64,000 nt of DNA from a virus (taxonomy: Duplodnaviria > Caudoviricetes). Positions 6,137 through 57,548 of the stretch are shown in pieces; the stretch's first letter is position 1; the number at the start of each line of letters is the position of its first letter. Location: the IMG/VR virus record IMGVR_UViG_3300044695_004869; one strand, given 5' to 3'. Both the position numbers and the translations under genes were made by a program. The notes under the pieces are model-generated. The model saw only the letters and a program-made list of their open reading frames with translations, was not told the origin of the DNA and did no database searches.

Positions 6137-6138
6137 AA

Positions 6139-11217: not shown

Positions 11218-11231
11218 TTTTTTACTTTATC

Positions 11232-11239
11232 TATAAATA
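11232..11239 (-). promoter_or_regulatory. TATTTAT motif (representative; about 15 copies upstream of operon-lead genes), candidate phage late promoter
   Basis: Coding-strand TATTTATN near starts at 11232, 13129, 14673, 19003, 19047(+), 21276(+), 21284, 24063(+), 24907(+), 26016(+), 30363, 39005, 48461, 49524, 50798, 53843. Confidence 0.6.
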
Positions 11240-38991: not shown

Positions 38992-39029
38992 TTATAGTTT
39001 TTACTATAAATATGCGGAACTACTAAATA

Positions 39030-40703
39030 TTAACATTCTTTTCTTAAAGAACCATCATAATGATCAAATCTATTATGTTCTGTCGGTGTTGATAATAAAA
39101 TACCTGATTTAATATTACCTTTTACCGTTTCTTGATAACAATGACTCATTAATGTTTGTTCATATGGGTTTTGGAATTTTGTTTTTAAATAACAATTATA
39201 ATTTCCTTCCTTAGACATTAATATTGGCCAATTAGATAAATAAATTTCTCCCGAAGCGTAAGGTACATTTCTATAAGATTTTATATGTTTAAATTCTAAA
39301 TTTGGTGAATTTGGGTCTAATCCCTGTTGAGGTAATTTAGGGTTATTTGGCCAATGAGATTCTCTAAATTCTTGAGGTACATTGTACCAAGCCCATTGTT
39401 TGTCGTGGGAACCATAAAACTCACTGAAGTTTAATTTTAAAAAATCAAAATTTTCATTTTTTAGAATGTCTAATGTTATGTCAAATATATTTTTAATATA
39501 TCTATTAAAACCATTTCTACAAGTTAAATCACCACCATTGTAAAAAAACATATCATCTTCAAAAAAATAATAATACCCTAAATCTTTTTGTTCATCAAAA
39601 TGTTCGGCAATAAATTGTCTACCACCAGTTATTCCGATGTTATCCTTTTTTATATGTTCAAACCCATATTCATTACATAATTTAATGTATTCATCTGTAG
39701 TTGTTAAATCGGTAGAATTATTTAAAAGAAATTTTTTAGTTTCATTAATAAATTTAGGGTCGTATTCTAACATTGAATTAATTAGAGTTCTAAATTGATT
39801 TGGAGAATTAAATGTAATAACATATACAGCAATATCACTACCCGTGTTTTTTACTTTAGGTTTTCTATTTTTATTTAAAATAACAACATCATCATTCTTG
39901 ACATCCTCAAAGAATTTATATAATAAACCATTACTTTCTATTTGACAATAATCAATTAATTGTGGGTTTTGATATAATAATATTGTGAATAAACTTTCTT
40001 CCGTACCCATATATCCTTTATTTAAAGTTTCAATAAGTAGGTTATAATATAAGACATTTATTTCGGCTATTGTATGTTTATCACCACCAAAAAAACCTCC
40101 TCTCGCAACAATATTTGGTTCAGAATTAGTTAATCTTTTCATTTCATTATATTCAAAACCATGTACTTCATTTTCCGCATCATATGGAAAACAAACAAAT
40201 AAAAAATTATTTGTTAATATTTTTATTTTATCCATTACTTTATCGTGAGTAAAGTAACCCCAATGAACAGTATTAGTTATTCCCGCATCTATCCAATAAA
40301 GTGAATCGGAATTAAATTTATCTAATATCCTTGCATCATTTAACAAAAACATTTTAGACATAACTAAAGGATTATACATTTCTAATCTTGCCTGTGTGGA
40401 ATCTTTTAACCATCCCGAAAGAGTATACCAACTTTCGTTTAATCTAATTTTTTGTATTTTTTCGTAATATTCATTATTTTTGAACCAATCAACACTTCTA
40501 ACTATAAATTGAGTATTATCTTCATTTCTAAATGTTTTGGCATACTCAATAACTTCTTGGTCACCAAAGATTATTAAATTACCATCATATTGTAAAAGGT
40601 CTTTGAATTTTTCTAAATATGTGTCAAAAGATCTTGACCATCCTTCAGTTAAATTACCTCTTCCGATATTCCATAAACCGGTTACTAATGTTGTGTTTTT
40701 CAT
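39030..40703 (-). CDS. HtrL/YibB-like domain fused to a GT-A (GT2-like) glycosyltransferase domain
   Basis: TLVTGLWNIGRG, YNPLVMSKMFLL, YWIDAG, GGFFGG, GTEESLFT; second domain AVYVITFNSP...YFFEDDMF. Confidence 0.6.
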   Translation of the reverse strand: MKNTTLVTGLWNIGRGNLTEGWSRSFDTYLEKFKDLLQYDGNLIIFGDQEVIEYAKTFRNEDNTQFIVRSVDWFKNNEYYEKIQKIRLNESWYTLSGWLKDSTQARLEMYNPLVMSKMFLLNDARILDKFNSDSLYWIDAGITNTVHWGYFTHDKVMDKIKILTNNFLFVCFPYDAENEVHGFEYNEMKRLTNSEPNIVARGGFFGGDKHTIAEINVLYYNLLIETLNKGYMGTEESLFTILLYQNPQLIDYCQIESNGLLYKFFEDVKNDDVVILNKNRKPKVKNTGSDIAVYVITFNSPNQFRTLINSMLEYDPKFINETKKFLLNNSTDLTTTDEYIKLCNEYGFEHIKKDNIGITGGRQFIAEHFDEQKDLGYYYFFEDDMFFYNGGDLTCRNGFNRYIKNIFDITLDILKNENFDFLKLNFSEFYGSHDKQWAWYNVPQEFRESHWPNNPKLPQQGLDPNSPNLEFKHIKSYRNVPYASGEIYLSNWPILMSKEGNYNCYLKTKFQNPYEQTLMSHCYQETVKGNIKSGILLSTPTEHNRFDHYDGSLRKEC

Positions 40704-40713
40704 ATACTTTTTT

Positions 40714-41589
40714 TTAAAGTGGTGTTATTGGATATTTTGGTATGAATCGTTCTTGATTTGGAATCCCTGTATTGTTAAATGTACAGGTAAAAAATAAAAA
40801 CCCCGAAAACCAATTGGCAATTCTATATATTTGTTTACAAGTTGATAACATATACATATCAAAAATGGTTTCTTTAAGATATTCATATAATATATCGTCT
40901 GTTAAATTCATAGTTCTAATATGTTCAAAGGTCAATGGAAATTTGTAATCATTTAAAATAAAATTTTCATGACTTGAATTTCTTAAATAGTTTTTAACTA
41001 TATCAAATTGAACGGAAACATAAACTTTTTTATTTTTATTTGAAATTAAAAAATCATCAATTTCACTTTTATATGTGTTAAGATCTTCTTCTTGATTTAC
41101 AGGATTGTCAGATGCGAATGGTCTATAGTGAATACCATAAAACTCATCTCCGAATGAATTACGTTTATTAACACAATATTCCATAACCTCATCTGTGAAA
41201 AAATTAATTTTTGGTAAATCGTCACGATAATACCATGAGTGTTTCATATGATGAATATTGTTTAATTCATCTACCTTTTTATCTACATATACAGAATAGA
41301 TGTGTTCGTAGTTATAATAATATTCATTATTATTTTTTACGGAATCAAATAAAGATGTGTCACCATTACTTATGATTGTTAGATTATCTAACATATCTAA
41401 TTTAAAAACTTTGTAAAAAACTGATCTATCGGCTGAATTAACTTTATAAGGGTTTCGTGTAAAATCTATATAAACATAAACAGTATAACCTAAGTTTTTT
41501 AATTGTTGTTGTACATCATATACCCTATATATGTTTGAATACATATCCCCTAACCCACTATTAAGACCTGTTATTATATGTGCATTCAT
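40714..41589 (-). CDS. Putative fucosyltransferase-like GT-B enzyme (NodZ/O-FucT-like)
   Basis: GLNSGLGDMY, YGIHYR, VYVSV, DMYMLSTC...FSGF. Confidence 0.45.
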   Translation of the reverse strand: MNAHIITGLNSGLGDMYSNIYRVYDVQQQLKNLGYTVYVYIDFTRNPYKVNSADRSVFYKVFKLDMLDNLTIISNGDTSLFDSVKNNNEYYYNYEHIYSVYVDKKVDELNNIHHMKHSWYYRDDLPKINFFTDEVMEYCVNKRNSFGDEFYGIHYRPFASDNPVNQEEDLNTYKSEIDDFLISNKNKKVYVSVQFDIVKNYLRNSSHENFILNDYKFPLTFEHIRTMNLTDDILYEYLKETIFDMYMLSTCKQIYRIANWFSGFLFFTCTFNNTGIPNQERFIPKYPITPL

Positions 41590-42509
41590 GAGTTATAATT
41601 TAAGATGTCATGCCATATCATATAGAATGGTTTTTGATTATTTGAATGTTCATTCCACATATTAAAATGAAATTCGTCATGTTCTCCTGATGAAAATGCG
41701 GAAAAATATAAATGAACAATTTCTTCATTGCTCATTCTATCTAATGCGATTTTCATTATCCCCTCTTCGGTACATAAGATACCGTGATTTAACACTGATT
41801 CAGTGAAGTTCCAAAAAAGATTAATATACTTTTTTAATACATTAGTATTACCTCCAATCATTCCACCAACAGGATACGGACTTTGGATTGTGTAATCAAT
41901 CAAACCTAAATTGTAAAAAGGATATGAAATTTGTGGGTTAATGGATGTTATTAAAGCAATTTTGTTTTCACACATTAAATTTAAATTATCAAATATTTTT
42001 GTGTTGAGTAATGATGAAAAATTATGTACATCATAATCTGACCACCAAGGTGCGGATAAATTTACGTGGTCTTCAATTTTATTGTATTTTTTTGAGTATC
42101 TCCACGGGAAAATTCCGGGATGTTGTAAACCAACATCTAACCAATAAACATAATCAAACCCCTCTAATTCTTTTTCAATGACTTCAAATTTACCCCACAT
42201 TATTTCAGGACCTCTACCATCTAAATCTGTGTTGAAGAATTTATCTCTAATTTCACTTATTTGTTTATGGTATTTCATATCAGATAACTCAAGTATTTTA
42301 ATTTCTAAATTACTTAAATTATAATCAGTTTTTATTTTGTTTAATTCTTCTAAATTTTTAGAATGTGTATAACAAACTACAGGTAAATTAATTCCCTGAC
42401 AATGTGAAATTAAAGATCCAATATATCTTGGTTTTCTTACATTTGTGGATCCTTGAAACGGATAACCGTTAACATCCATCCAATAAGCTGTTACAATTTT
42501 TGTCTTCAT
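41586..42509 (-). CDS. Second HtrL/YibB-like protein
   Basis: KIVTAYW, MWGKF, YVYWLDVGL, VGGMIGG, CTEEGIM. Confidence 0.5.
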   Translation of the reverse strand: MKTKIVTAYWMDVNGYPFQGSTNVRKPRYIGSLISHCQGINLPVVCYTHSKNLEELNKIKTDYNLSNLEIKILELSDMKYHKQISEIRDKFFNTDLDGRGPEIMWGKFEVIEKELEGFDYVYWLDVGLQHPGIFPWRYSKKYNKIEDHVNLSAPWWSDYDVHNFSSLLNTKIFDNLNLMCENKIALITSINPQISYPFYNLGLIDYTIQSPYPVGGMIGGNTNVLKKYINLFWNFTESVLNHGILCTEEGIMKIALDRMSNEEIVHLYFSAFSSGEHDEFHFNMWNEHSNNQKPFYMIWHDILNYNS

Positions 42510-42513
42510 ACTT

Positions 42514-43050
42514 TTATTTTTTTATACCCCAAAAGTATAAATCTTGAGGCCAAACACTTCTGGTCTCAAATTCATAACTTGAAAAAATTTCATCTACATT
42601 AATTTTTTCTCTAATATCTTCTTCGGATAAATTTCTATAATAATCTGTTTCCAATTGTGATGTAAATGGACTATTACTTGGGCTTGTTCTTTTTGTTCCG
42701 TGTTCGGGTCTACCAATACCGGCGCAAGTAAATGTGAAAATACCATCGGATTTTAAAAGATCAATCCCATTTTTAATTGTTAATTCCCAAAACTCATCAT
42801 GTTCAAAACATTCTGAAGAAATAACAACATCAAATTGATTTGGATCCTTATATTCGTGACCTCTTGAAACAACGTCAACATTGTTTCCTTCACCAATGTC
42901 AAGTCCAACATATTCGTAATCCTCAAATAAAAAACGATTATTACCGTTAATATCTAAGGATCCAATATCTAAAACCCTACAATTTTTAAATTTTTCCGTA
43001 AATTTAGATCTAACCGATTCTAAAAATATTCTTTGTTCTTCGTGTGCCAT
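42514..43050 (-). CDS. Class I SAM-dependent methyltransferase
   Basis: VLDIGSLDING...YVGLDI...DVV...FDVVISSECFEHD. Confidence 0.85.
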   Translation of the reverse strand: MAHEEQRIFLESVRSKFTEKFKNCRVLDIGSLDINGNNRFLFEDYEYVGLDIGEGNNVDVVSRGHEYKDPNQFDVVISSECFEHDEFWELTIKNGIDLLKSDGIFTFTCAGIGRPEHGTKRTSPSNSPFTSQLETDYYRNLSEEDIREKINVDEIFSSYEFETRSVWPQDLYFWGIKK

Positions 43051-43052
43051 AA

Positions 43053-43814
43053 TTAAAATCTTATATGATAATCCCCTGTTTTAGTGTAGAAAGCAAAACA
43101 AGAAGGTAAAAAGTGATTAAACACTCCATTGTAATTCCATTTCATTCCTGCCTCTAATGCCGATACCCCAATTTCAAAACCATCAGGATAATTTCTAATA
43201 TCGTTATGAATTGAATACCATAAAAACTGTTCCCATCTTTGAGTAAAGAATCTAAATTTGTAATTGTTTTTAAACACTAAACACTGTTCGTTTACAACGT
43301 GAGCATCATCCCATTTATCATATTCCAAAATATCGTAATCATAAATTTTATCCCTATAAAAACTATTTTCAGGATCTCTCCTACCATCACCAATACTTGC
43401 TGGTCTTTCAAAAACAAAGTCCAATTCTTCGTTCTCCATATAGTTTAACATATTTAATATTTTTTCTTCAGAAAAATTTTCGTGCATAATCCAATCTCCA
43501 TCTGTGAATATCACGTAATCAAATTTCTTAAATTCAGGGTTTAATCTTAACATTTCCTTTTCATTATTTAAAACTTGTTTAAGCGATAAACATTTATAAT
43601 TTAAATGGAAACTAAACCCTCCTCTTGAATCGTGTAAACTTTGTAATGATTCTCTATTGATATGAATTCTTTCGCCTAAATCAGGAAAGTCAGGATTATT
43701 TGTTGTAATAAAAAATTCACAATTTTGAGTTTTTTCTCTTAAACTTGTGTATAATTTGGCGGTGAATTCTTCATATGGCTCACCGACAGCCAAAGTTGTA
43801 AAACAGTATTTCAT
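43053..43814 (-). CDS. Putative GT-A glycosyltransferase
   Basis: FTTLAVGEPY, KCLSLK, YVIFTDGD (DxD), VNEQCLVF; inside GT operon. Confidence 0.5.
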   Translation of the reverse strand: MKYCFTTLAVGEPYEEFTAKLYTSLREKTQNCEFFITTNNPDFPDLGERIHINRESLQSLHDSRGGFSFHLNYKCLSLKQVLNNEKEMLRLNPEFKKFDYVIFTDGDWIMHENFSEEKILNMLNYMENEELDFVFERPASIGDGRRDPENSFYRDKIYDYDILEYDKWDDAHVVNEQCLVFKNNYKFRFFTQRWEQFLWYSIHNDIRNYPDGFEIGVSALEAGMKWNYNGVFNHFLPSCFAFYTKTGDYHIRF

Positions 43815-43815
43815 T

Positions 43816-44496
43816 TTATAAATTTATTTCGTTTATATAGTTTAGGCATTGAACTCCACTTGGTTTTGTGGGTTCGTCATTTTCATCCATTTGCATTCCG
43901 ATAAAAAAGTTTTTATCGTCTCTTGGAATATAGTTAGTTCTAATGTCGTATCCGCAATAAAACACCTCATCATTACTAATATTCTCCATGTATATTCTTA
44001 AGATCTCTTGATCGGCACCCCAAACTAATTCATGTGTATTAACAAAATTAATGAAGTGATCCCCAAACTCTTTTATTTTTCTTTTAATCCCATACAATCC
44101 ACTTGGTACTGGTGCGTGCCATGGATGATCTCTAATTATAAAATAATCAAGACCACTATCCATCCATTTATTAATGTACTCAACCTCTCTATCACTAAAT
44201 CGACTATCAAGGTCTCTTGCAATTACAGGAACATCTTCTAAGAATGCTAAAAACCTCCAAAAGAAAGGATAATGGATTGATTCTTTTCCACCCAAATCCA
44301 TTCCATTAACATTAATAAGGGTTCCTCCCAATTCTTTTAATTTATCAACAACACCATCTAAGATCATGTTTTCGTGGTAATAAATCCTAACTTCCCAATC
44401 AGGAAGTAAATTTTTTATTTCTGTTATATTTTTTTCTGCCCCAACATAATATTTTGGTTCAGTTCCGAATAAAGAGAAGGATACTATTGGTTTCAT
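43816..44496 (-). CDS. Putative GT-A glycosyltransferase (RDxDSR family)
   Basis: VSFSLFG...KYYVGAEKN, FWRFLAF, IARDLDSRFSDRE, IRDHPWH, GADQ. Confidence 0.5.
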   Translation of the reverse strand: MKPIVSFSLFGTEPKYYVGAEKNITEIKNLLPDWEVRIYYHENMILDGVVDKLKELGGTLINVNGMDLGGKESIHYPFFWRFLAFLEDVPVIARDLDSRFSDREVEYINKWMDSGLDYFIIRDHPWHAPVPSGLYGIKRKIKEFGDHFINFVNTHELVWGADQEILRIYMENISNDEVFYCGYDIRTNYIPRDDKNFFIGMQMDENDEPTKPSGVQCLNYINEINL

Positions 44497-45347
44497 CTTT
44501 TGTATATGTCTGTTACGTTTATAAATTCATATCTTGGTTCGTCATCAACAACTAAGTTTACATATGTGTTGAAAACTGAGTTATTTGAGTTTTTACCTGA
44601 GTTTGGACCATCATTGGTTATGGGCCAATATATTTTATCGGCATTAGATAAAAAACAAGCCCAAAATGAAAATGTGCCTTGAGCCGCTATAATTTTATTA
44701 AAAGATGTTATTTGTGAAAATACATCTATTATCGTCCCATCAATTATTATTGGGTTATATTTTGTTAATTTTTCTAATAACGAGGTATGTCTATCTAAAT
44801 GATCTAAACTAATGTATAAATTATCAAAACTTTCATTCTCAATAATATTTGTATAATAATCATCAGGTAAAACAAATGACCCATCTATTCTACTATTTCT
44901 TAACATTATTACAATATCGTTATTGTTTCTTTTTGGTAAAACTAAAGAACTATAGTACGACTTAACCATTTCTTTATATGGTTTAATGTAATCATATTTT
45001 GAAAAATAACATTGGTTTAGAAATCCATGATTTGGGTATTCCTCTATTAACCTTTGAATTGAACCGAAATGTACGATGTCGTTATCACTAATAACTTTAA
45101 TAGGTGAGGATACATCTTTTCTACCATCAATGCCCTTAAATGGAAATATTTGATCTTCATATAAACCGGTTAATCTATCTTCTCTCCTAATGAGGGCATC
45201 GTCAGGGGTTATAAAGTTATAATCTAAAAGATCTGCAATAATTCTACATCCCGCATAAATAAAAAGTTTGTTACCAAAGTTTTTTTTGGGAGATGAAAAA
45301 TGTTTACCACCTAAAAATGATTCGTATTCGTCGTACTGTTCAATCAT
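44493..45347 (-). CDS. Alpha-1,2-fucosyltransferase-like (GT11)
   Basis: FGNKLFIYA, IVIMLRNS, LPDDYY, IIAAQGTFSFWACFL, resembling the GT11 GNQMF / HxRRGD / NSTFSWW motifs. Confidence 0.65.
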   Translation of the reverse strand: MIEQYDEYESFLGGKHFSSPKKNFGNKLFIYAGCRIIADLLDYNFITPDDALIRREDRLTGLYEDQIFPFKGIDGRKDVSSPIKVISDNDIVHFGSIQRLIEEYPNHGFLNQCYFSKYDYIKPYKEMVKSYYSSLVLPKRNNNDIVIMLRNSRIDGSFVLPDDYYTNIIENESFDNLYISLDHLDRHTSLLEKLTKYNPIIIDGTIIDVFSQITSFNKIIAAQGTFSFWACFLSNADKIYWPITNDGPNSGKNSNNSVFNTYVNLVVDDEPRYEFINVTDIYKR

Positions 45348-46591
45348 AAGTTACCTGTAATTCTATCACACCACCCTTTTGATGTGCTATATGGCCAAAC
45401 AACCCAATACTTTGGTTTGTGTACCGTTTGGAAATCTCTCCATACTTTACAATATCCGTCAGGATCATTCATCATCATATTAATTTCATTAATATCGGCA
45501 TCTTTTCTAAAGATTGTTTCATCGTTCTCATCATGGAATGCAACAACCCAAAACTCATAATCTTTTTCCGGAACTTGAGTAAATCCAACATCAATACAAT
45601 GTTTGAATATTGATGCATAACTTGCCATCAATTCTTCTTCAGTTTCAAAAATGTAAGGGTTTGGTGGGTAGTTTTTATCTAAGGTATATTGTTGGACAGC
45701 TCTTTTAGAAAATAAAAGACCTGAATAGATTTCATATTCTCTTAATGTTCTTTCGGTTCCAAATCCATATTTACTGAAGTCCATTGTAACTTCTTCACCA
45801 TCCATACCAAATAACTGACGATTCTTTTGGTGTGATAAATTATTTTTATTAACCCAATCTTTATCGTCATCCCATTGTTTGGTTCTACCTTTACGAGTAT
45901 ATTCGTGCCAAATAACAACTTTGTGTGGGTGGAATAAATCATAACCGTGAGTATATGCTCTAACGGCAATTGAAATCTCTTCTCCGTGGAAATAGAACTC
46001 AGGATCATGTTGAACCTCTTCACTAAATTGACCTAAAGTAAATGCGAAGTGTGCGGAATAAAACCTTGCGGTAACAGGTTCTTTCATTTCTTGCCAACCT
46101 GGAATTGTTTCAGGTAAAAAGAACACGGCACCTTCGGGAATAAATCTATCAAACGCCATTCTCCAAGGTTCCTGTACTCTACCCGCAGGATCATTATCAG
46201 GATCAAACGAAGAAACATAACCCGTTAATAGTGGTTTCTCAAAACCTTTTTTCTGAAGTTGTTTAACCATTTTGATTAAAGTATCATCCCAATCCTTTTC
46301 AAATCTCATGTGGGAGTCAATTTGTAATGTATATTCTTCACCTTCGTATAATTGTTGAACTTGGTTTCTTGCCCAACAAACACCTTTTGAATCTGAATAT
46401 AAAACATCCAAGATTCTAAATCTTTTATCTTTACGATATTCTTCTAGTAAATCAAATTGATCATCGGGGTTATATTGTCTACAAATTCCAATTCTTAAAT
46501 TCTTAGGTTTTTTTGCGTTTTCCAACATATTTTTAATTGTTGGTTCCAATTGAGGATCACGATATGCTGCGATTTGAACAAATATTTTCAT
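45344..46591 (-). CDS. GT60 polypeptide/hydroxyproline alpha-GlcNAc transferase-like (Gnt1/Gnt2 family)
   Basis: IFVQIAAYRDPQL, KGVCWAR, YTLQIDSHMRF..DWD, FYSAHFAF, DPEFYFHGEEISIAVRAYTHGYDLFHP...WHEY. Confidence 0.8.
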   Translation of the reverse strand: MKIFVQIAAYRDPQLEPTIKNMLENAKKPKNLRIGICRQYNPDDQFDLLEEYRKDKRFRILDVLYSDSKGVCWARNQVQQLYEGEEYTLQIDSHMRFEKDWDDTLIKMVKQLQKKGFEKPLLTGYVSSFDPDNDPAGRVQEPWRMAFDRFIPEGAVFFLPETIPGWQEMKEPVTARFYSAHFAFTLGQFSEEVQHDPEFYFHGEEISIAVRAYTHGYDLFHPHKVVIWHEYTRKGRTKQWDDDKDWVNKNNLSHQKNRQLFGMDGEEVTMDFSKYGFGTERTLREYEIYSGLLFSKRAVQQYTLDKNYPPNPYIFETEEELMASYASIFKHCIDVGFTQVPEKDYEFWVVAFHDENDETIFRKDADINEINMMMNDPDGYCKVWRDFQTVHKPKYWVVWPYSTSKGWCDRITGNL

Positions 46592-48447: not shown

Positions 48448-48520
48448 TAAATTCTTTTAATATAAATATTGATTTTTATATTTAATTAATAGGTAAAATA
48501 ATATTACAGTAAATATATCC

Positions 48521-49510
48521 TTACAATCCAAATCTTGACTTAGTTGAGTTCCAATAAGATGTTACTTGACTTTGATCTAATGCTTTATCATAAATGTTAA
48601 CTATTGATAAATAACCACCCCAATGATCAGCAAAATCCCATCTTCTCATCAATCTTATTCCTGCATTACTTGATGATGGTTGACCACCTGTGGTTGATGT
48701 TGTACTTAATAATACATTATTTACATACACCCTAACAACTTGGCTTGAGTCACAAGTTGTAACAATATTATACCAAGTATTTGCAGTTAAACCAAATTGT
48801 GGTGATAATTGGAACCCTCCATTAAAATATCCTCCTTGAGCAACCGCTCCTTGAGGTTTACCAAGAACGTAGTTAATTGAACCCCCAACAAACACTTCAG
48901 TTAGTATACATGGGAATTCTGAGGTATTAACACCATCCCAATTATGCCAAACAGATGTTGTGAATTCGGGAAGTGATTGTAAACTTGTACTACATTCCGC
49001 ATATTGACCGCCAGGTGCGAAGAAATAAAATTTACCACCATCACCTGGATCATAACCAGGACCATTAATTAAATTAAATGCCTTACCACCAATTAAATCA
49101 GTCCAAGTAGTTCCTGTTCCGGGATAACTTAATGGGTTACCCGCATCTAAAGATAATACAGGAGATATATATGAATTCCAATATCCATTTGAGGTTAGTG
49201 CTGACGAAGCTTCTACGGGATTATTGTAATTCTCATTTAAAAGTATATTTGCAATATCAACAAATTCACTATCATTAAACCCACTAGTTCTAAAAAATCC
49301 GACTGAACCTGTTACGCCAGGTACTGGTGTTGGTTGACTATCATCAGGAACAGATTGTGCAATTACATAACCCAAATCTTCATCAGGTCCGTTCCACCAC
49401 TCCATTCCGGTGTATCCGGATGTTGGGTATCCTATTGCCAAATCACCCACTTGTATTGTTCCTGAAATTGGTGAACCCGTATTATATGAAAAAGGTCTTG
49501 TTGTTGGCAT
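48521..49510 (-). CDS. LamG/concanavalin-A-like domain virion protein
   Basis: LSLDAGNPLSYPGTGTTWTDL, WYNIVTT...VRVYVNN, GYLSIVNIYDKALDQSQV. Confidence 0.75.
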   Translation of the reverse strand: MPTTRPFSYNTGSPISGTIQVGDLAIGYPTSGYTGMEWWNGPDEDLGYVIAQSVPDDSQPTPVPGVTGSVGFFRTSGFNDSEFVDIANILLNENYNNPVEASSALTSNGYWNSYISPVLSLDAGNPLSYPGTGTTWTDLIGGKAFNLINGPGYDPGDGGKFYFFAPGGQYAECSTSLQSLPEFTTSVWHNWDGVNTSEFPCILTEVFVGGSINYVLGKPQGAVAQGGYFNGGFQLSPQFGLTANTWYNIVTTCDSSQVVRVYVNNVLLSTTSTTGGQPSSSNAGIRLMRRWDFADHWGGYLSIVNIYDKALDQSQVTSYWNSTKSRFGL

Positions 49511-49538
49511 AATAGTTTTTAATAATAAATATCAATAA

Positions 49539-50477
49539 CTATATAATTTCTAATACCTTATTATATACAATAAGTGGATTTGGGTGACACTCAAATGTTT
49601 CTTTTCTTTCTAAACAATTAACTAAAGATGGTATACCTTGAATTGATTGCCACTCTCTAACACCATATTTCATATCTGACGCACAGTGTAAACCACATCC
49701 CCCTCTTACATAATGATATTTATATTCTTGGGAACCTTTTCTATATGGAGATCTAAACTCAGGGTTAATTGAACTACCAAGTTGTATTATTTCACAATCT
49801 GTTGTTCCTGCTAAATGTAACAACCCTGAATCCATTGTAATAAAACACATAGATTTATTGATGAGATGCCAAGTTTGAGATAGTGGGGTTTGATTCATTA
49901 AATTTAAACCTAAATCAATTGGGAAATTAAATACGGGTTTATCTACATTAGACCCACCAAGTTCTGAAGAATCTTTTCCTACCGATATAACCGCAATTCC
50001 TTTTTGATTTAAAAGTTTAACAAGTAGTTGCCATTTTTTTGCGTCCCACGTTCTTGAATTCCAATTTTGTACGGGGTGAATTAAAACATATTTTTCGGGT
50101 AAACCATCAATTGGTTGATATTGATGAGGTATATATTCCAATTCCATCTCATCTTTGGTTAACATAAAACCAAGATTAATTGCGTGGAATTGTCTAATAT
50201 CCATTGCGTTATGTTTATAACAAACACCATTCGGATGATATCCAACATTAAATGAGTTAAAGATCTCGTATTCTTTTTTCTGTTCTTCAGATATAATATT
50301 TGAAACCTCATCATAAACAACATCAACATATGGGTTGTTTGAAAATAGATATGGGTGATGAGTTATAACTGAAATTTTTTGATTATAACTATTAAAAAGT
50401 TTTCTAAGTGTGGGGGTTACACATAACGTATCACCTAATGCTCTTGCGTTTGAAATATCAACACATACTTTCTTCAT
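49539..50477 (-). CDS. GT9/heptosyltransferase-like GT-B enzyme with C-terminal Cys4 cluster
   Basis: ALGDTLCVTPTLRKL, YVLIHP..NWNSRTW, FITMDSGLLHLAG; CGLHC...C...C. Confidence 0.75.
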   Translation of the reverse strand: MKKVCVDISNARALGDTLCVTPTLRKLFNSYNQKISVITHHPYLFSNNPYVDVVYDEVSNIISEEQKKEYEIFNSFNVGYHPNGVCYKHNAMDIRQFHAINLGFMLTKDEMELEYIPHQYQPIDGLPEKYVLIHPVQNWNSRTWDAKKWQLLVKLLNQKGIAVISVGKDSSELGGSNVDKPVFNFPIDLGLNLMNQTPLSQTWHLINKSMCFITMDSGLLHLAGTTDCEIIQLGSSINPEFRSPYRKGSQEYKYHYVRGGCGLHCASDMKYGVREWQSIQGIPSLVNCLERKETFECHPNPLIVYNKVLEII

Positions 50478-50515
50478 ATGTTAAGTATAAAGTATGTTGT
50501 TAAAAAATAAATAAG

Positions 50516-50794
50516 TTATGGTGTCATCATTAAAGGATTTGGGTCTGTCCATTCCGGTGTTCCCAAAATTACTAATATCTCCTCATAAGTATAAGGACCT
50601 TCTTTTGTGTTTAGATTACTTACACATGACGGTATCGTACCATCCCATTTTACAAATGTTTTTGTTTCATTAACTGATTTTCTAACGGTTTCTGATGATG
50701 TTTCTAACACCGTGTTAAAGTCAATTTGATTTAACTCACTAACATTAAAGATCATAAATCTTCTATTGTCGTATTCTTGTAATTGTGTTTCCAT
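50516..50794 (-). CDS. Conserved phage hypothetical protein
   Basis: IDFNTVLETSSETVRKS...TFVKWDG...EGPYTYEEI. Confidence 0.5.
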   Translation of the reverse strand: METQLQEYDNRRFMIFNVSELNQIDFNTVLETSSETVRKSVNETKTFVKWDGTIPSCVSNLNTKEGPYTYEEILVILGTPEWTDPNPLMMTP

Positions 50795-50808
50795 AATAAT
50801 AAATATAT

Positions 50809-51840
50809 TTACATCCCAAATCTTGATTTTTGGGAATTAAAGTTTTGGAGAACTTCCGAATCTGATAATACTCTTTCATAAAGTAATAATATGGCTATAT
50901 TACCGGGGAACGGATATTGATTGTTTGTATAATTACCTAAACGTAATCTACTACCTATGGATGGTTGGTAAAGTGAATCGGTGTAATTTGAAGAAGATGT
51001 GTTGAATACTCCGTTAACATAAATTTTTGCAGTGGCGAGTTGATTTTGTAAATCATACAATAAAGTGTAAGTAAAATTATACCATATGTTATTACTGAAA
51101 GTCGCACCCGTTGTATATAAATTTCTTTGACTTGTTGTCCCCCCTGTAATTGTACGATATGATACCTGATATCTATTTATATCCGAACCGCTATTTGTTC
51201 CTCTAAATGCCATATATGGTATAAAATTACTCATCATCATATTGAACACATTTCCGTCCGAAGTCCTTTTAACCCATACGCTCCATGTCATACCTGACAC
51301 CATAGTATAACGGTCATCACTAACCACCTCATCATCAGTGCCGTCAAACACTAAGGAACCCCCACCATCCGTTGAATAAGTTACCCCATTTAATAAAGTG
51401 AAACTCAATGTATTGTTATTATTACCAACATTATAGAATGTTGTTCCGGATATAGGATATGAAGGAATATATCCGGCATCTAAACATACGGATAAACCAC
51501 TTGTTACTATTCCTTCATAATCTCTATTTACACAAACATAATTTGATTGTGTTGCATACCAATCTAAACATTGTGTTACCGTTGAGAAGTTTTGACCTGA
51601 TACTCCATTTGTATATGTTATAAGATTAACATCATTTGTTGCACTATAAAAACTAAGTTTTGATGTTTCACTTGAGTTATATGAATATATCGTATAACCT
51701 CCTGTTGTTGGTGCAACTCCATTATAATATGTGGTGGCACTTGATGGTCCCTTTCCAACATCACCAACACCAAAAAAGATATTTCCCTTTTTTAATGATA
51801 AGGTATCTCCTGTTGTTGAATATTTAATTGCGTTTGGCAT
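50809..51840 (-). CDS. LamG-like domain protein with shared N-terminal anchor module
   Basis: YEGIVTSGLSVCLDAG..SYP, LVFDGTDD, AKIYVNG, GNIAILLLYERVLSDSEV. Confidence 0.75.
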   Translation of the reverse strand: MPNAIKYSTTGDTLSLKKGNIFFGVGDVGKGPSSATTYYNGVAPTTGGYTIYSYNSSETSKLSFYSATNDVNLITYTNGVSGQNFSTVTQCLDWYATQSNYVCVNRDYEGIVTSGLSVCLDAGYIPSYPISGTTFYNVGNNNNTLSFTLLNGVTYSTDGGGSLVFDGTDDEVVSDDRYTMVSGMTWSVWVKRTSDGNVFNMMMSNFIPYMAFRGTNSGSDINRYQVSYRTITGGTTSQRNLYTTGATFSNNIWYNFTYTLLYDLQNQLATAKIYVNGVFNTSSSNYTDSLYQPSIGSRLRLGNYTNNQYPFPGNIAILLLYERVLSDSEVLQNFNSQKSRFGM

Positions 51841-51862
51841 TTAATGTTTAATTATTTATATT

Positions 51863-52117
51863 TTAATTTTCATAACCATATAAAGTCCCGTTATCAATTA
51901 TTTTCCATATCGAATGAAAATTACTTGTTGGTCTCTCAACTAATAATTCATCAACATAATCCCACCAAGAATTAAGTTGTTGTTCTGTTAATGTTGAAGA
52001 GCATTGACCTCTATAATTAACACCATATGGTTGTTCTTGATCTAATTGAATAGAACTGTTACTACTATTGAATTGTATTATTTGATCATCTGTTGTTTTA
52101 AATTCTACCTGTCTCAT
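51863..52117 (-). CDS. Hypothetical protein
   Basis: 84-aa ORF overlapping the stop of the upstream gene (ATGA). Confidence 0.45.
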   Translation of the reverse strand: MRQVEFKTTDDQIIQFNSSNSSIQLDQEQPYGVNYRGQCSSTLTEQQLNSWWDYVDELLVERPTSNFHSIWKIIDNGTLYGYEN

Positions 52118-53829
52118 TTTACCATAATCATATAATGTTGAGTTCCCCCATAAGTTAATCCGTTTGAGACATATGTTCCAAAGTCATACACTCCACCGGT
52201 TGTTGTTTCTCCACCACACCAAGCACCTGAATAATAAAAGGCGGCACCACAATAAACAGTAGCCATTCCACCCCATCCTCCTCCATACCCTGCATAACCA
52301 CAACAATCTCTCATATAGTAAATATTATTATTTGTACCTGTTGTTGTATATCCAACTGCCCCTTGCATACCTGGATAATCCGTTGTACCGTAAACAGCAG
52401 TGTTACTTTTTATTGTGGAATTAGTGTATGATTGTTGAGTATCGGAACCAAAAAATGTTGAGTAGTTTATGGAAGATACTTTATAAATAAACGGACCCCA
52501 ACTATTATCCACGTTAGTTCTTTGGTTACCAAAAATGAAAGAGGTAAACGTTGCATTTCCGTCCCATATTTCTCCCCATCCTAATTGATATGCCTTAGAA
52601 AAATCATTTATATTACCTACCGTACCACCTTTCCAACCCCAGTTTTCACCATCTAAGTTTACTGATGGGGCACTTCTAGCGATTAGCGTCCACCCTCCAC
52701 CATCAGTTGTCATATCACAATGAACTTGATATGGTGATGAGGTCGGTCCACCAGGATAAACCCAATACAATCCGTCATATCCCGCAAGTTGTGGAAATGT
52801 GTCTATAATATCTTTACAAGTTTTACAAGTATTGAAAAATGATGGCCCACTATTTCTTAATGTTCGTGTGATTTCTGTTTGAGATAAAGCTCGGTTGTAA
52901 ATTGCCCATCTATATATGTTACCTTTCCACATATTATCACCTCTACCTAAATACTGAGTACCTCCATTAGTATCATAATATGGAGTTCCTCCAGCAAAAG
53001 ATCCTGCTGATATTGCATCGTGATAATATATTTGAGCTTGGGGGGTAATTGTTATAACCCCTAAATGATATCTTGTGGTACTTACAGTTACGGCATTAGA
53101 TACTCCACCGGCATAATTAGAACTAAAATGATAATATAATTGTGATGGGTTATTTGTTGGACTATATAAATAAAAATTAAAACTTCTACCAGATCCCGCA
53201 ACTCCAATCATACACCTAAATTGACTATTAAAATCTGTAAGAGCATCTATCTTATACCAAACCGCAATTGTTATACCCGCGGACCAAGTTATATTATTAA
53301 AATTATTGGAGTTCGCAATTGAAATTAAATCATCTGTACCATCAAAAGAAAATGTCCCCGTGGTACTATTCCAAGACGTACCATTAGACAAAGTACCATT
53401 TCCAACACTACCACTATTCATTAATGGGTAAAGTGTGGATCCATTTTTAGGGTATGATGAAACACAACTACTGTCGACTAAATATACTAATCCATTAGTG
53501 ATAACCGCATCATAATCTTTATCTAGTAAGAATTTATCTGTTTGAGTAATATAATAATTTAAACATTCATTCGCTGTTGTATAATTTGTACCTGCAATTT
53601 TGTTAGTTAAATCAATTAATTGAGTGTCGTTCGATGGTACATATATTGATGGACCATTGGATGTCTTATTAAGATATATTGTATATCCACCACGAGGAGG
53701 TGAGATACCATTCCAATAACCTGAGGTACTTGTAGGTCCTTTTCCTACATCATTCGTACCAATCCAAAAGTCACCCTTTTTAAGAGCCAATGTTTGGGCC
53801 GTCGCACTATATTTTATTGAATTTGGCAT
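52114..53829 (-). CDS. LamG-like plus fibrinogen-C/intelectin-like domain protein
   Basis: LamG: FSFDGTDD...WKGNIYRWAIYNRALSQTEI; fibrinogen-like: CKDI...DGLYWVYP...VHCDMTTDGGGWTLI. Confidence 0.75.
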   Translation of the reverse strand: MPNSIKYSATAQTLALKKGDFWIGTNDVGKGPTSTSGYWNGISPPRGGYTIYLNKTSNGPSIYVPSNDTQLIDLTNKIAGTNYTTANECLNYYITQTDKFLLDKDYDAVITNGLVYLVDSSCVSSYPKNGSTLYPLMNSGSVGNGTLSNGTSWNSTTGTFSFDGTDDLISIANSNNFNNITWSAGITIAVWYKIDALTDFNSQFRCMIGVAGSGRSFNFYLYSPTNNPSQLYYHFSSNYAGGVSNAVTVSTTRYHLGVITITPQAQIYYHDAISAGSFAGGTPYYDTNGGTQYLGRGDNMWKGNIYRWAIYNRALSQTEITRTLRNSGPSFFNTCKTCKDIIDTFPQLAGYDGLYWVYPGGPTSSPYQVHCDMTTDGGGWTLIARSAPSVNLDGENWGWKGGTVGNINDFSKAYQLGWGEIWDGNATFTSFIFGNQRTNVDNSWGPFIYKVSSINYSTFFGSDTQQSYTNSTIKSNTAVYGTTDYPGMQGAVGYTTTGTNNNIYYMRDCCGYAGYGGGWGGMATVYCGAAFYYSGAWCGGETTTGGVYDFGTYVSNGLTYGGTQHYMIMVK

Positions 53830-53886
53830 TTAATCTTTATTTTATAAATACTTTAACTTTTAAACTTGGTTGTTATTTTTAACGAT

Positions 53887-56814
53887 ATGGAAAAGATTAA
53901 ATTATTATACTTAACACCCCACCTATCAACAGGGGGTATGCCTCAATTCGTCTTAAAAAGAATTCAATCATTACAAGAATATAAAGATCAGATTGAGATA
54001 TTTTTAGTTGAATACTCTCAATTCAGTTCAACATATGTTGTACAAAGAGATCAAATTATAAAATTATTAGGAAATAATCACTTCTTCACGTTAGGCGGAA
54101 CTGATGAGGTTGACAAAAAAAATATGTTGATTGACATCTTAAAAAACAATAAGATTGATATTCTTCATTCAGAAGAAATGATTGATGGATTTGAATCGTT
54201 TAATAAAGTTCCAATTGATCTACTAAACCAAATTTACTCTAACGATAGAACTTGGAGAATTATTGAGACGTGTCATAATATTTGGTTTAACCCACTATCA
54301 GATAAAAAATTACATCCTGACGCTTATTCTCTTGTAACACCATATCATATGGAGGTTTCTTTTAAAGATACCCCCCCAATGAAATTTCTATCAACATATC
54401 CATATGAAAACAAAGTAACACCTATCTTAGCGGAAAATGAAATCTATGGTGATTTCAAACAATTACCTCTTATACATAAAATAAAAGTTAGAGAAGAACT
54501 TGGTTTGGATATGTTTAAAACTCACGTATTAAATGTGGGATTATGGACAAGTGGTAAAAATCAAGGTGAGGGTGTTGAGGTCGCAAGAACTTTGGTTGAA
54601 TCTAATCCTGATATTCAATTCCATTTTATTGGAAATCAAGCACCAAACTTTGAGGACTATTGGGGTCCGATTATGAAGAACTTACCATCAAATGTTAAAG
54701 TATGGGGTGAAAGAAATGATGTTGATAAATTTATGCAAGCCTCCGATGTTTTAATGTTTAATTCAACTTGGGAATGTAATCCTTTGGTTATTAGAGAATC
54801 TATTAACTATGGTATGAAAATATTAACAAGAAATCTACCACAATATATGGGAATGTTTGATAAATACATTAAACCAATTAGTGGTGAGATCGAAGACATT
54901 TCAAAACAATTAGTTAAACTTATTAATAATGAACACACATATGACATACCAAACGATACTGATTTTGGTGATAACCTTTTGTCAATGTATCGTATTGTTC
55001 TAAATGAACAAATAAGACATAACGAACCAATTAAAAATGATTACATTTATACACAACATTATGTGTGTCAACCATTTTTTGAATTTAGAGGTCAAAGTGA
55101 AAATAAGTTTTTAATTAAAATGTTTGATGGTGATGACAATCTTATTTATAGTAATACGTTATCAATTAATAGTTGGATTAAATTAAATAGAGAATATTAT
55201 ACAGATTGGAGAACAGAGGTGTGGGAAAATGATGAATTGATTTATGAAAATAAAATTAACTTAGAAGGAAAAAGAGTTTATATATCGTTCGGATCAAAAT
55301 CATTAGGGGATACAATGGCTTGGATTCCTTATGTTGAGGAATTTAGATTAAAACATAAATGCGAATTAATTGTCTCGACATTTATGAACCAACTATTTGT
55401 TGATCAATATCCAAATATTGAATTTGTTGATCCGGGAAATGTTGTTATGAATATTCATGCCCAATATAGAATAGGGTGGTTCTATAATGAAGATGGTTCC
55501 GTAAATTATAATATGACACCAAATGATTATAAAAAACAACCATTACAAAAAACCGCAACAGATATATTAGGTCTTGAATATAATGAGATAAAACCAAAAC
55601 TTAAATTACCAAATGTTCCAAAAAAGAAAAAAGTCGGTATTGGATTTCACTCAACGGCGCAGTCAAAATATTGGAATAACCCAAATGGATGGCAAGAAGT
55701 TATTGATTATCTTATAAATTTAGGATACGAATGTATGATTTATTCTAAAGAGGGGGATGGGTATATGAATAACCATTACCCAAAAGGAGTAACTATTTTT
55801 GAAGGGGGTGACCTACAAAAAGTAATTAATGATCTTGTTACTTGCGAATTCTTTATTGGTTTGGGATCAGGGTTATCTTGGTTAGCGTGGGCTTGTGAAT
55901 TACCGATAGTTTTAATATCAGGATTTAGTGAGAAATGGGCAGAAACAACTTTAGACACATATAGAGTTATTAATGAAAATGTTTGTCACGGATGTTTTAA
56001 TTCGGAAAAATTAGATGCGGGAGATTGGAATTGGTGTCCATTACATAAAGGTACCAATAGAATGTTTGAATGTACAAAACAAATTACATCTCAAATGGTT
56101 ATTTCTGAAATAAATAAAATTCTTAAAAAAGAAAATCTTCCTGTTTTTGATTGGGGTTGGATGAATACAGATATCATTAATGCCCAATATCATAAAGAAG
56201 TTATGTACAATGAAATTTTTATTGATAAGGTTTATGAAAGATTTTTTGAGGTTGAGGAAGGTGATATTGTATTTGATATTGGATCAAGTGTTGGTCCTTT
56301 TACAAAATCAATTTTACATAAAAAACCAAAGCACGTATTCTGTATTGAACCAAGTACCTCCGAATTTAAAACTTTAGTTAAAAACACCTTAGGTTATCCT
56401 GTAACACAAATAAATAAAGGTATTGGTTTTACAAACGGGATTGTTGAATCTAATGAACTTTTTGGTGGGGAAACACATATGGAATCTATAAATTTTAAAA
56501 AACTATTGGATCTTTATGGAATTGAAAAAATTGATTTCTTAAAAACAGATTGTGAAAGTGGTGAATATGAAATCTTTAGAGATGAAAACGTTGAATTCAT
56601 TAAGAATAATGTTAAAAAGATTTCAGGTGAGTGGCACTTAAGAACGGATGAAAGTAGAGAAAAATTCAGACATTTTAGAGATAATGTATTACCTAACTTT
56701 GATAATTACCAAATATTCTCTGTTGATAATATTGATATCAAATGGGAATTGTGGACCGAAAGATTTCTTGAATGGTATGACGAAATAATTATCTATATTG
56801 ATAATAGAAAATAA
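53887..56814 (+). CDS. Tri-domain enzyme: GT4-like + TibC/Aah-like protein O-glycosyltransferase + FkbM methyltransferase
   Basis: GT4: VLNVGLW...KNQ, FMQASDV..FNSTWECNPLVIRE; TibC-like: SKSLGDTMAW, STAQSKYWNN, FIGLGSGLSWLAW, CHGC/WCP/FECTK; FkbM: VFDIGSSVG, IDFLKTDCESGEY. ATG 53887 preferred. Confidence 0.75.
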   Translation: MEKIKLLYLTPHLSTGGMPQFVLKRIQSLQEYKDQIEIFLVEYSQFSSTYVVQRDQIIKLLGNNHFFTLGGTDEVDKKNMLIDILKNNKIDILHSEEMIDGFESFNKVPIDLLNQIYSNDRTWRIIETCHNIWFNPLSDKKLHPDAYSLVTPYHMEVSFKDTPPMKFLSTYPYENKVTPILAENEIYGDFKQLPLIHKIKVREELGLDMFKTHVLNVGLWTSGKNQGEGVEVARTLVESNPDIQFHFIGNQAPNFEDYWGPIMKNLPSNVKVWGERNDVDKFMQASDVLMFNSTWECNPLVIRESINYGMKILTRNLPQYMGMFDKYIKPISGEIEDISKQLVKLINNEHTYDIPNDTDFGDNLLSMYRIVLNEQIRHNEPIKNDYIYTQHYVCQPFFEFRGQSENKFLIKMFDGDDNLIYSNTLSINSWIKLNREYYTDWRTEVWENDELIYENKINLEGKRVYISFGSKSLGDTMAWIPYVEEFRLKHKCELIVSTFMNQLFVDQYPNIEFVDPGNVVMNIHAQYRIGWFYNEDGSVNYNMTPNDYKKQPLQKTATDILGLEYNEIKPKLKLPNVPKKKKVGIGFHSTAQSKYWNNPNGWQEVIDYLINLGYECMIYSKEGDGYMNNHYPKGVTIFEGGDLQKVINDLVTCEFFIGLGSGLSWLAWACELPIVLISGFSEKWAETTLDTYRVINENVCHGCFNSEKLDAGDWNWCPLHKGTNRMFECTKQITSQMVISEINKILKKENLPVFDWGWMNTDIINAQYHKEVMYNEIFIDKVYERFFEVEEGDIVFDIGSSVGPFTKSILHKKPKHVFCIEPSTSEFKTLVKNTLGYPVTQINKGIGFTNGIVESNELFGGETHMESINFKKLLDLYGIEKIDFLKTDCESGEYEIFRDENVEFIKNNVKKISGEWHLRTDESREKFRHFRDNVLPNFDNYQIFSVDNIDIKWELWTERFLEWYDEIIIYIDNRK

Positions 56815-56819
56815 TCCTT

Positions 56820-56848
56820 AACCCTCACCTAAAAAGTGGGGGTTTTTT
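56820..56848 (+). terminator. Terminator between convergent genes
   Basis: AACCCTCAC-CTAAAAA-GTGGGGGTT plus T tract. Confidence 0.7.
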
Positions 56849-56849
56849 A

Positions 56850-57548
56850 TTAACAAGGACCTTGATATGCTAGTGTAGAGGATCCGTCCCAATAGTAACA
56901 ATCAGTTCCGTCACTATAAAAGGCATCTCTCGCCGGAATTTTACAAAGATTATCATCAAATATTCCATCGGCATTTGCCAAATTACACGTACCACCACAA
57001 GGTAAGTGTAGGTAATATACTGCCGTTGTATTACAAGAACAAGCTTCCCCACATTCCGGACCATAACATAATTCTCTTTCACAACAAACTTCAACACAAG
57101 GTGTTGGAGTCGGAGTTGGTGTTGGCGTTGGACTTGATCCGGCCGATGTTGCCGTTGGTGTTGCCGTTGGAGCCGAGGTATTTGATGGAGTAACGGGTGG
57201 TGTTGATGCCGGTGTTGCCGGAGGAGTTCTTGTTGGTGTAGGTGTCATTGTTGGTGTACTAGGTGGTGTTTTTGTTGGGGTCGTCGTTGGTGTTACAGTT
57301 CTTGTTGGTGTATTAGTTGGTGTATTAGTCGGCGTATTAGGTGGTGTTCTTGTTGGAGTTGCGGTTCTTGTTGGTGTCATAGTTTGTGTTGGTACAGGAC
57401 TTCCTCCCGGTGTTCTTGTTGGTGTCACTGTTGGTGTTGGTGAACAGAAATCAATGTCATCCATTTTACTTGCATTTGCTTTAAGTATATCATCAACTTT
57501 GCTGATATTAGCACATAAAACGTCATTAACTTTACTTACTGTTGGCAT
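56850..57548 (-). CDS. Thr/Pro mucin-like protein with Cys-rich C-terminus
   Basis: Short N-terminal xxKVxxV repeat, about 115-aa TPT stalk, Cys-rich tail. Confidence 0.65.

Follow-up and report, generated by a model that had tools for sequence, protein, structure and literature searches.

Enzymes of the TibC/Aah (BAHT) family are known as virulence-linked modifiers of AIDA-type autotransporters in Proteobacteria. Here we analyse a relative encoded on a 64,000-nucleotide stretch of viral DNA (IMG/VR record IMGVR_UViG_3300044695_004869; Duplodnaviria, Caudoviricetes), hereafter the window. The gene is an uninterrupted open reading frame (ORF) on the + strand at 53887 (ATG)-56814, and the ORF list and its translation give a product of 975 amino acids (aa) in which a TibC-like domain is fused between a GT4-type glycosyltransferase and an FkbM-type methyltransferase. 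Comparison with phage and bacterial genomes splits the TibC/Aah family into an autotransporter-linked side and a side linked to Gly-Ser/Thr-X repeat genes, the latter including many uncultured jumbo phages.

In TibC, Asp110 is the catalytic base, Thr226 and Lys230 contact the beta-phosphate, Trp305 contacts the heptose O4 and Arg286 the adenine N1, a contact that the study itself terms weak; Pro300 sets D,D-heptose selectivity, Phe265 and Val266 at the thumb tip are needed for the dodecamer, Phe368 is needed, and Cys339, Cys342, Cys358 and Cys370 bind Fe (PMC4358343). The central domain of the fusion protein resembles TibC over the whole catalytic protomer, with an N-terminal barrel and a two-lobe GT-B core, and has equivalents of Asp110, Thr226, Lys230, Trp305, Phe368 and the four Fe-binding Cys. 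Like TibC, the fusion enzyme is predicted to be soluble and cytoplasmic, and its expected acceptor is a repetitive Ser/Thr-rich surface protein. Unlike TibC, it is phage-encoded, forms a single chain with GT4 and FkbM modules, is separated from all autotransporter-linked members by a branch with full support (Shimodaira-Hasegawa-like approximate likelihood ratio test, SH-aLRT, 100), and has a Gly-Ser/Thr-X repeat protein as its candidate partner. It also differs at two positions (Arg286 to Val, Pro300 to Gly), and its thumb is three residues shorter. TibC is a dodecameric ring of back-to-back dimers joined via the thumb; read from sequence alone, the fusion protein keeps a hydrophobic thumb tip and Phe727, and it may form a ring or other oligomer.

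The heptosyltransferases WaaC and WaaF (CAZy GT9) share the GT-B fold, the GT9 Pfam signature and the predicted inverting ADP-heptose mechanism with an Asp base, but they have neither the N-terminal barrel nor the Cys4 module, and their acceptor is a lipid-linked oligosaccharide. For the proposed product, an analogy is offered by BclA of the Bacillus anthracis exosporium, a collagen-like (Gly-X-Thr) protein that is densely O-glycosylated and capped by 2-O-methylated anthrose (PMC10050317, PMC6222408). The likeness would lie in a Thr-rich collagen-like surface filament, glycosylated along its repeat and ending in an O-methylated sugar; BclA is a bacterial spore protein with unrelated enzymes, a GalNAc linkage sugar and Pro-rich triplets, and serves as an analogy only. 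Mycobacteriophage glycosyltransferases decorate the phages' own structural proteins (Freeman et al. 2023, PMC10527164, as cited in PMC12582341). That case is reported to involve other glycosyltransferase families, acting on capsid and tail-tube tails, and no multidomain fusions; neither a TibC-like domain nor a collagen-like acceptor is known in it.

A TibC/Aah-family domain between GT4 and FkbM modules

The first-pass annotation had read this three-part architecture from the letters alone and had suggested a TIGR04414 search and an AlphaFold comparison with TibC as checks. Both were run, and hidden Markov models (HMMs), the alignment to TibC and predicted folds bear the architecture out. The central domain lies at 55102-56121 (+; aa 406-745). 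TIGR04414 (NCBIfam) matches the fusion protein at 287.4 bits against a curated cut-off of 200 (E 1.5e-85, HMM positions 27-374 of 374), the heptosyltransferase I model gives the domain just 15.7 bits, and the GT9 signature PF01075 is found at E 4.4e-4. The solved TibC chains 4RAP/4RB4 match at E 7e-65, with query residues 405-746 aligned to TibC 38-387 at ~36% identity. In the AlphaFold2 (AF2) model of aa 395-750 (predicted local distance difference test, pLDDT, 97.3), six strands precede the first Rossmann-like lobe. Foldseek places this predicted fold at template modelling (TM) scores of 0.85-0.87 to all 4RAP/4RB4 chains; the next-best folds are the lipopolysaccharide (LPS) heptosyltransferases WaaF/WaaC, at 0.5-0.57 and 12-14% identity.

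The motifs named in the first-pass annotation are present where it had placed them, far beyond chance, all on the + strand: SLGDT at 55300-55314 (aa 472-476), IGLGSGLSWLAW at 55855-55890 (aa 657-668), CHGC at 55984-55995, WCP at 56032-56040 and FEC at 56065-56073. The predicted catalytic residue, Asp475 (55309-55311, +), aligns with TibC Asp110, and the four-Cys knuckle formed by Cys700/703/717/729 (55984-56073, +) aligns with the Fe(Cys)4 'iron finger' of TibC, a 1Fe-0S site formed by Cys339/342/358/370. Altogether, the equivalents of TibC D110/T226/K230/W305/F368 are D475/T590/K594/W665/F727. Across 138 diverse representatives, the catalytic D, the K and the W are invariant, the Thr position holds T or S, and 134 of the 138 have all four Cys, as do all 98 full-length homologues. 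Two positions vary. That of TibC Arg286 is Val646 here, with a Lys at -1 (column V36, R36, T22, L18 of 138), and that of Pro300 is Gly660 (column G72, S57, P6 of 138). The thumb tip is a hydrophobic Tyr626-Met627 pair where TibC has Phe-Val. By HMM, predicted fold and aligned active-site residues, the central domain is a true member of the TibC/Aah protein family; it misses the family's functional definition, the pairing with an autotransporter.

The N-terminal module (53887-55068, +; aa 1-394) is a GT4-type GT-B glycosyltransferase domain. PF00534 (Glycos_transf_1) matches aa 201-350 at 37.4 bits against a cut-off of 26.4, and the AF2 model of aa 1-394 (pLDDT 93) is a complete GT-B fold with two Rossmann-like lobes. 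Its closest PDB folds are the retaining GT4 enzymes BshA, MshA, PimB', WaaG and HepE (TM 0.6-0.68). The E-x7-E motif lies at 54772-54798 (+; aa 296-304); E296 is invariant in the 98 full-length homologues, and E304 is E in 88 and Q in 11 of the 99 aligned rows (the query plus these homologues). At the other end, the FkbM-type S-adenosylmethionine (SAM)-dependent methyltransferase domain (56269-56682, +; aa 795-932) matches PF05050 at 27.5 bits against 22.7 (aa 858-932) and TIGR01444 at 35.9 bits, slightly under its cut-off of 37.7. Its glycine-rich SAM motif, DIGSSVG, lies at 56275-56295 (+), with D797, G799 and G803 invariant in the 98 homologues. The predicted methyl acceptor of this module is a glycan.

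Across these homologues, median identity is 79% for the GT4 module, 75% for the TibC-like domain, 52% for FkbM and ~50% for the linkers, while catalytic, Cys and SAM-motif residues are invariant except E304. Since the motifs stay invariant as the linkers drift, all three modules are maintained, and we reject an inactive or decayed fusion on the same grounds. An assembly or gene-calling artefact was also rejected because the 975-aa frame is repeated on many independent contigs. More than 120 clusters of fusion proteins of identical length (67-100% identity) occur on contigs of up to 390 kb, and the exact protein recurs in JGI and ENA metagenome assemblies, on contigs as long as 234.7 kb. An alternative TTG start at 53866 would give 982 aa.

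We further examined the breadth of the family with an exhaustive profile-free search using aa 395-750 as query. At E <= 1e-3 it returned 1485 representative clusters, of which 768 reached E <= 1e-30. The family near the fusion protein is mostly multidomain: among the best 150 representatives, 124 have at least 600 aa and only 13 are stand-alone proteins of at most 450 aa. A GT4 homologue is found in 34 and an FkbM homologue in 30 of these 150, before or after the TibC-like domain. A Pfam scan of 61 of these proteins brought up, in addition, Methyltransf_24 (5), GT2 (3), the rhamnosyl O-methyltransferase RMNT_CmcI (2) and TylF (1). Close relatives of 1192-1550 aa carry extra GT2, GT8, GT25 or methyltransferase domains. 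These repeated fusions, in varying orders and with unrelated O-methyltransferase families, argue that the fused modules act on one glycan. No TibC-like domain was directly joined to Gly-X-Y repeats in the 271 proteins collected. In IMG/VR, 121 loci hold relatives, in full, GT4+TibC, TibC-only and TibC+FkbM forms.

One relative belongs to a cultured cyanophage. Microcystis phage Mel-JY01 (PP395634.1, our L091) encodes at 4750-8430 a 1226-aa protein, WWT39291.1, annotated 'methyltransferase FkbM'. The last 350 aa of this protein are TibC-like, with 50% identity to aa 399-750 of the fusion protein, a likeness that its annotation does not mention. Its domain order differs from that of the fusion protein, the TibC-like domain being C-terminal. 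A 639-aa 'cytidylyltransferase like protein' is encoded 3 kb downstream (11243-13162). This phage would offer a tractable system for testing the hypothesis developed below, and our literature search found no paper mentioning it. JGI automatic annotation names proteins of this kind 'autotransporter strand-loop-strand O-heptosyltransferase', and the literature search returned no paper connecting TibC/Aah-type enzymes with phages or collagen-like proteins. New here are the split into two clades, with bacterial gene pairs outside phages; the genes for heptose synthesis in relatives; and the convergent fusions to methyltransferases.

Gly-Ser/Thr-X repeat genes beside TibC-like genes

Among 80 IMG/VR loci, 38-43 have a Ser/Thr-dominated Gly-X-Y ORF no further than 10 kb from the TibC-like gene; many of the remaining loci are truncated by contig ends. 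All five complete phage genomes examined carry both TibC-like and collagen-like genes. In three of four complete phage lineages, no more than 20 kb separates the main collagen-like genes from the TibC-like gene, the distance being 2-19 kb in G005, G001/G002 and G003 (in G003, one of three such genes).

The decisive comparison on the acceptor came from bacterial genomes, which yielded at least 560 loci with TibC-like genes; 80 of these were retained. In a tree of 103 domains, 35 bacterial rows split off on a branch of length 0.54 with SH-aLRT 100, a set that includes Burkholderia, Enterobacteriaceae, Selenomonadales and Lentisphaeria and that makes 36 rows together with the long-branched viral locus L036. 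On this side, none of the 36 rows has a Ser/Thr Gly-X-Y ORF within 8 kb, and all five neighbours tested are AIDA-type autotransporters (AIDA, Autotransporter, ESPR, Pertactin). Three plasmid copies (Salmonella, C. rodentium pCROD1 and E. coli) were then added to give 106 domains; these copies, each annotated beside an AIDA-I or AIDA-repeat gene, join the autotransporter side, which then has 38 rows with a branch support of 100.

The other side of the tree holds the window, all viral loci except L036, chromosomal Methylococcales, Arenicellales and Burkholderiaceae metagenome-assembled genomes (MAGs), and others. Here, 35 of 66 representatives have a Gly-Ser/Thr-X ORF within 8 kb, against 0 of 36 on the autotransporter side (Fisher p 2.7e-9). 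When only loci with 5 kb or more of flank on each side are counted, the figures are 28 of 44 and 0 of 18, and the median distance is ~600 bp. In the bacteria, the partner genes encode small proteins that match Pfam Collagen and combine a signal or lipoprotein leader with a tract of (GTS)n, (GSS)n or (GTT)n; the pairs sit amid housekeeping-looking genes, away from phage genes. Being seen both in phages and on bacterial chromosomes, the pairing of TibC-like and Gly-X-Y genes spans two unrelated settings; this is an association, not a proof. No AIDA-type autotransporter was found in the window.

At the chromosomal loci with such repeat genes (Methylococcales, Burkholderiaceae, Arenicellales and other Gammaproteobacteria MAGs), the TibC-like gene stands alone and is bordered by between one and three genes for small (GSS)n/(GTS)n proteins that have a lipoprotein leader or a signal peptide, several of them with poly-Asp ends. 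Examples are L116:6450-6824, 9106-9717 and 10059-10520; L121:6452-6826 and 9195-9779; L098:9142-10023; and L105:9175-9507. In L098, from Methylococcales, the TibC-like gene lies at 8130-9071 and its neighbour at 9142-10023 has a (GTS)36 tract. As judged from their sequences, these small repeat proteins may be an undescribed class of heptosylated surface proteins.

In the window, the proposed acceptor is the product of a giant proline-free collagen-like fibre gene on the - strand, running from 57559 to beyond 64000 with its 5' part outside the window. The part inside encodes ~650 uninterrupted Gly-X-Y triplets (GTN 433, GTS 192) and a C-terminal globular domain of ~195 aa, and Pfam Collagen matches the protein at E 3.5e-116. 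A complete copy in locus L090 has 2625 aa, with 52 N-terminal residues, 793 uninterrupted triplets (GTN 490, GTS 230, GSS 32, GTD 27; Pro in none of the 793) and a C-terminal globular domain of the same ~195 aa; its composition is ~30% Thr and 13% Ser. The GTN triplets create ~490 Asn-Gly-Thr sequons, which makes Asn N-glycosylation a formal possibility. Fibre gene length varies among assemblies of the same phage (L087-L090: 2254, 2625, 2652 and >3747 aa), reflecting either real repeat-length variation or assembly collapse.

Between the fibre gene and the fusion gene, also on the - strand, lies an alternative acceptor gene (56850-57548), whose 232-aa translation combines an extended Thr/Pro tract with a Cys-rich C-terminal domain; Pfam gave no match for it. 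ORF coordinates and strands agree with the earlier description of a layout convergent with a Thr/Pro-rich gene and a Gly-Thr-Asn/Ser gene. A G+C-rich hairpin with T runs (56820-56844; no strand assigned), picked out by a consensus scan and by inspection of the sequence, resembles a terminator between the convergent genes, a weak call because such sites are no more numerous in the region than in shuffles.

Predicted donor sugar, proposed mechanism and rival explanations

We further investigated whether relatives encode a pathway to the donor. The three-domain fusion is also present, at 64% identity, in the complete relatives G001 and G002, which have genes for GmhA (238.7 bits; NF001628 cut-off 265), for a full-length kinase of the HldE type (301 bits; cut-off 345) and for an adenylyltransferase resembling rfaE domain II (107 bits). 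In the L042-type lineage, a stand-alone TibC-like gene is followed directly by adenylyltransferase-like (100.7 bits) and kinase-like (117 bits) genes, and kinase-like genes follow the TibC-like gene also in L020, L023 and L058; in several lineages, the genes directly behind TibC-like genes have HldE domain I or II as their best match. We know of no role for GmhA outside heptose synthesis. On the strength of these GmhA and HldE-like genes, some of which immediately follow the TibC-like gene, ADP-heptose is favoured, with moderate support, as the predicted donor; it is probably the D,D form where no epimerase is present. The first-pass annotation had doubted this donor for a Bacteroidota host, a doubt that the same genes do not favour.

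In G003 (IMG/VR, 476 kb, locus L023; classed as a provirus), an HldE-kinase-like gene comes next after the GT4+TibC gene, and 2.3 kb from the latter, at the contig end, there is a collagen-like gene.

The account that we favour, with slightly better than even confidence, is that a soluble phage-made enzyme of three modules attaches, extends and methylates a glycan on the neighbouring GTN/GTS fibre. In the late phase, the soluble enzyme would meet the newly made fibre chain in the cytoplasm, and the TibC-like module, with Asp475 as base, would move heptose from ADP-heptose to Ser/Thr of the GTN/GTS triplets with inversion. The GT4 module would next add a second sugar with retention, the FkbM module would cap a glycan hydroxyl with a methyl group, and the fibre would exit the cell bearing a short capped glycan. 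An attach-extend-methylate line aimed at the adjacent Ser/Thr-rich genes had been proposed in the first-pass annotation; the recurrent pairing and the fusions now lend it comparative support, and we still infer its acceptor and the order and timing of its steps.

Several observations count against this account. On the acceptor, the collagen-like gene of the complete phage G004 is 48 kb from its TibC-like gene, about a third of the well-flanked loci that group with the window in the tree lack a collagen-like gene up to 8 kb away, and the clustering of fibre and glycosyltransferase genes in phages may merely reflect late or variable-region genes. Moreover, TibC acts on a beta-helix and not on Gly-X-Y, so repeat recognition would have to differ. 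On the donor, tblastn with the relatives' GmhA, kinase and adenylyltransferase found no heptose-pathway gene in the window, and all heptose-pathway matches in relatives fall under NCBIfam curated cut-offs. Searches of five complete relatives for GmhB and HldD gave nothing or generic short-chain dehydrogenase/reductase epimerase matches only. The five closest IMG/VR relatives, fragments 18-57% complete, gave no GmhA or HldE-kinase match, a result that is uninformative for fragments. Finally, TibC Arg286 is Val646 here and varies across the clade, which leaves room for another nucleotide.

The same chemistry may be directed at another Ser/Thr-rich virion protein, whether the 232-aa Thr/Pro protein, the LamG-domain fibres (48521-53829) or several acceptors, which we regard as unlikely. 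The Thr/Pro-rich gene is nearer to the fusion gene than the collagen-like gene is, but homologues of its product occur in just 5 of 80 related loci, and mucin-like Thr/Pro tracts are better suited to the window's separate GT60-type GlcNAc transferase (45344-46591). In 17-22 related loci, the fusion gene has conserved LamG genes and a second GT9 gene at its side. The window encodes several further glycosyltransferases and Thr-rich proteins, among which substrates could be assigned in more than one way, and some loci that group with the window in the tree have no collagen-like gene nearby. Yet the partner that recurs both in phages and at unrelated chromosomal loci of bacteria is the Gly-Ser/Thr-X repeat gene.

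A separate question from the acceptor is whether the central domain uses a nucleotide sugar other than ADP-heptose, such as ADP-hexose or another NDP-hexose, in which case the attached sugar would be no heptose. The variable Arg286 and Pro300 positions speak for it and are our main reservation on ADP-heptose, although the Arg286 contact was called weak in TibC itself (PMC4358343) and the positions of Trp305 (heptose O4) and Thr226/Lys230 (beta-phosphate) are invariant. Likewise, the window has no heptose gene, the complete relative G005 has no GmhA or HldE-like gene and the matches in other relatives are below cut-off, whereas the GmhA of G001/G002 reaches 238.7 bits and genes directly behind TibC-like genes best match HldE domains I and II. 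On this evidence, a donor other than ADP-heptose seems doubtful.

Least probable, in our view, is an auxiliary function in remodelling an envelope glycan of the host (LPS core, O-chain or capsule) as a superinfection block or release aid, the usual reading of glycosyltransferase and rfaE genes in large aquatic myophages. In its favour, GT9 enzymes are classically LPS heptosyltransferases with WaaC/WaaF the next-best structural matches, GT4 and FkbM domains are common in polysaccharide synthesis, and glycosyltransferases and rfaE in pelagimyophage host-recognition clusters have been read as O-chain modification genes (PMC7029224). The central domain, however, is no generic GT9, with 287 bits to the TibC/Aah model and only 15.7 to that of heptosyltransferase I, and it retains the N-terminal barrel and the Cys4 module, the parts with which TibC binds its protein substrate. 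Its bacterial relatives are paired with secreted repeat proteins and not with LPS loci, and no membrane segment or lipid-carrier enzyme was seen in the fusion gene.

Phage context and implications

The window is DNA of an uncultured lake myovirus-type jumbo phage and not of a bacterial chromosome; PHROG matches identify a tail sheath (15657-18968), a tail tube (14151-14639), a baseplate hub, a DNA polymerase (27526-30309) and a helicase. A Shine-Dalgarno-like motif precedes only 3 of 36 window genes, and leaders (for example 11218-11242, 38992-39016, 48448-48472 and 53830-53854) are A-rich. Such A-rich leaders lacking a Shine-Dalgarno motif are compatible with a Bacteroidota-type host. A TATTTAT box stands 10-20 nt 5' of many start codons; the leader of the fusion gene has only a near-match to it, TATTTTATAAATA, ~37-51 nt upstream. 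A T4-type late promoter, TATAAATA, 36 nt 5' of the ATG was given no weight, as the octamer occurs 17 times in the window against 14.6 expected.

The second GT9 gene (49539-50477, -) encodes a remote TibC-like paralogue of 312 aa that lacks the N-terminal barrel. It matches PF01075 at E 1.7e-13 and TIGR04414 at only 41 bits, and hhalign against the BAHT alignment gives a probability of 96.5%. It is conserved beside LamG-domain genes in 19 related loci. The LGD catalytic motif is retained, as is a C-x3-C...C...FEC pattern alignable to the four-Cys module, so that this phage may encode a pair of TibC-derived transferases.

A run of eight genes on the - strand (39030-46591), mostly encoding sugar-modifying enzymes, lies between fibre-like genes; these enzymes include an HtrL/YibB-like protein, a small SAM methyltransferase, a GT11-like enzyme and a PF11397 GlcNAc transferase (E 4e-73). 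As the run sits amid fibre-like genes, several glycosylation activities may share Ser/Thr-rich virion proteins. In L042, a 2789-aa tail-fibre-like gene with a Gp53-like C-terminus (826-9195, +) lies upstream of split GT4/TibC genes and has Hint/intein-splicing domain matches near its C-terminal end.

Beyond the single locus, we tentatively put forward a wider reading, one that we hold possible with less than even confidence. The TibC/Aah family would have a second large branch, so far little noticed, extending over jumbo phages and the chromosomes of several bacterial orders, whose natural acceptors are Gly-Ser/Thr-X repeats in place of the beta-helices of autotransporters. In phages, single-chain assembly lines, with ADP-heptose synthesis sometimes phage-encoded, would lay a dense heptose-based, methyl-capped glycan on a proline-free triple helix, and this glycan would stabilise the micrometre-long fibre in place of hydroxyproline. 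If this is true, these repeats would form a new acceptor class for protein O-heptosylation, and the glycan would account for the stabilising or shielding of proline-free phage 'collagens'. The compact one-chain enzymes would also lend themselves to glyco-engineering of repeat proteins. Finally, glycosyltransferase, rfaE and gmhA genes of aquatic phages would serve virion glycosylation and not, as they are routinely called, the editing of host LPS.

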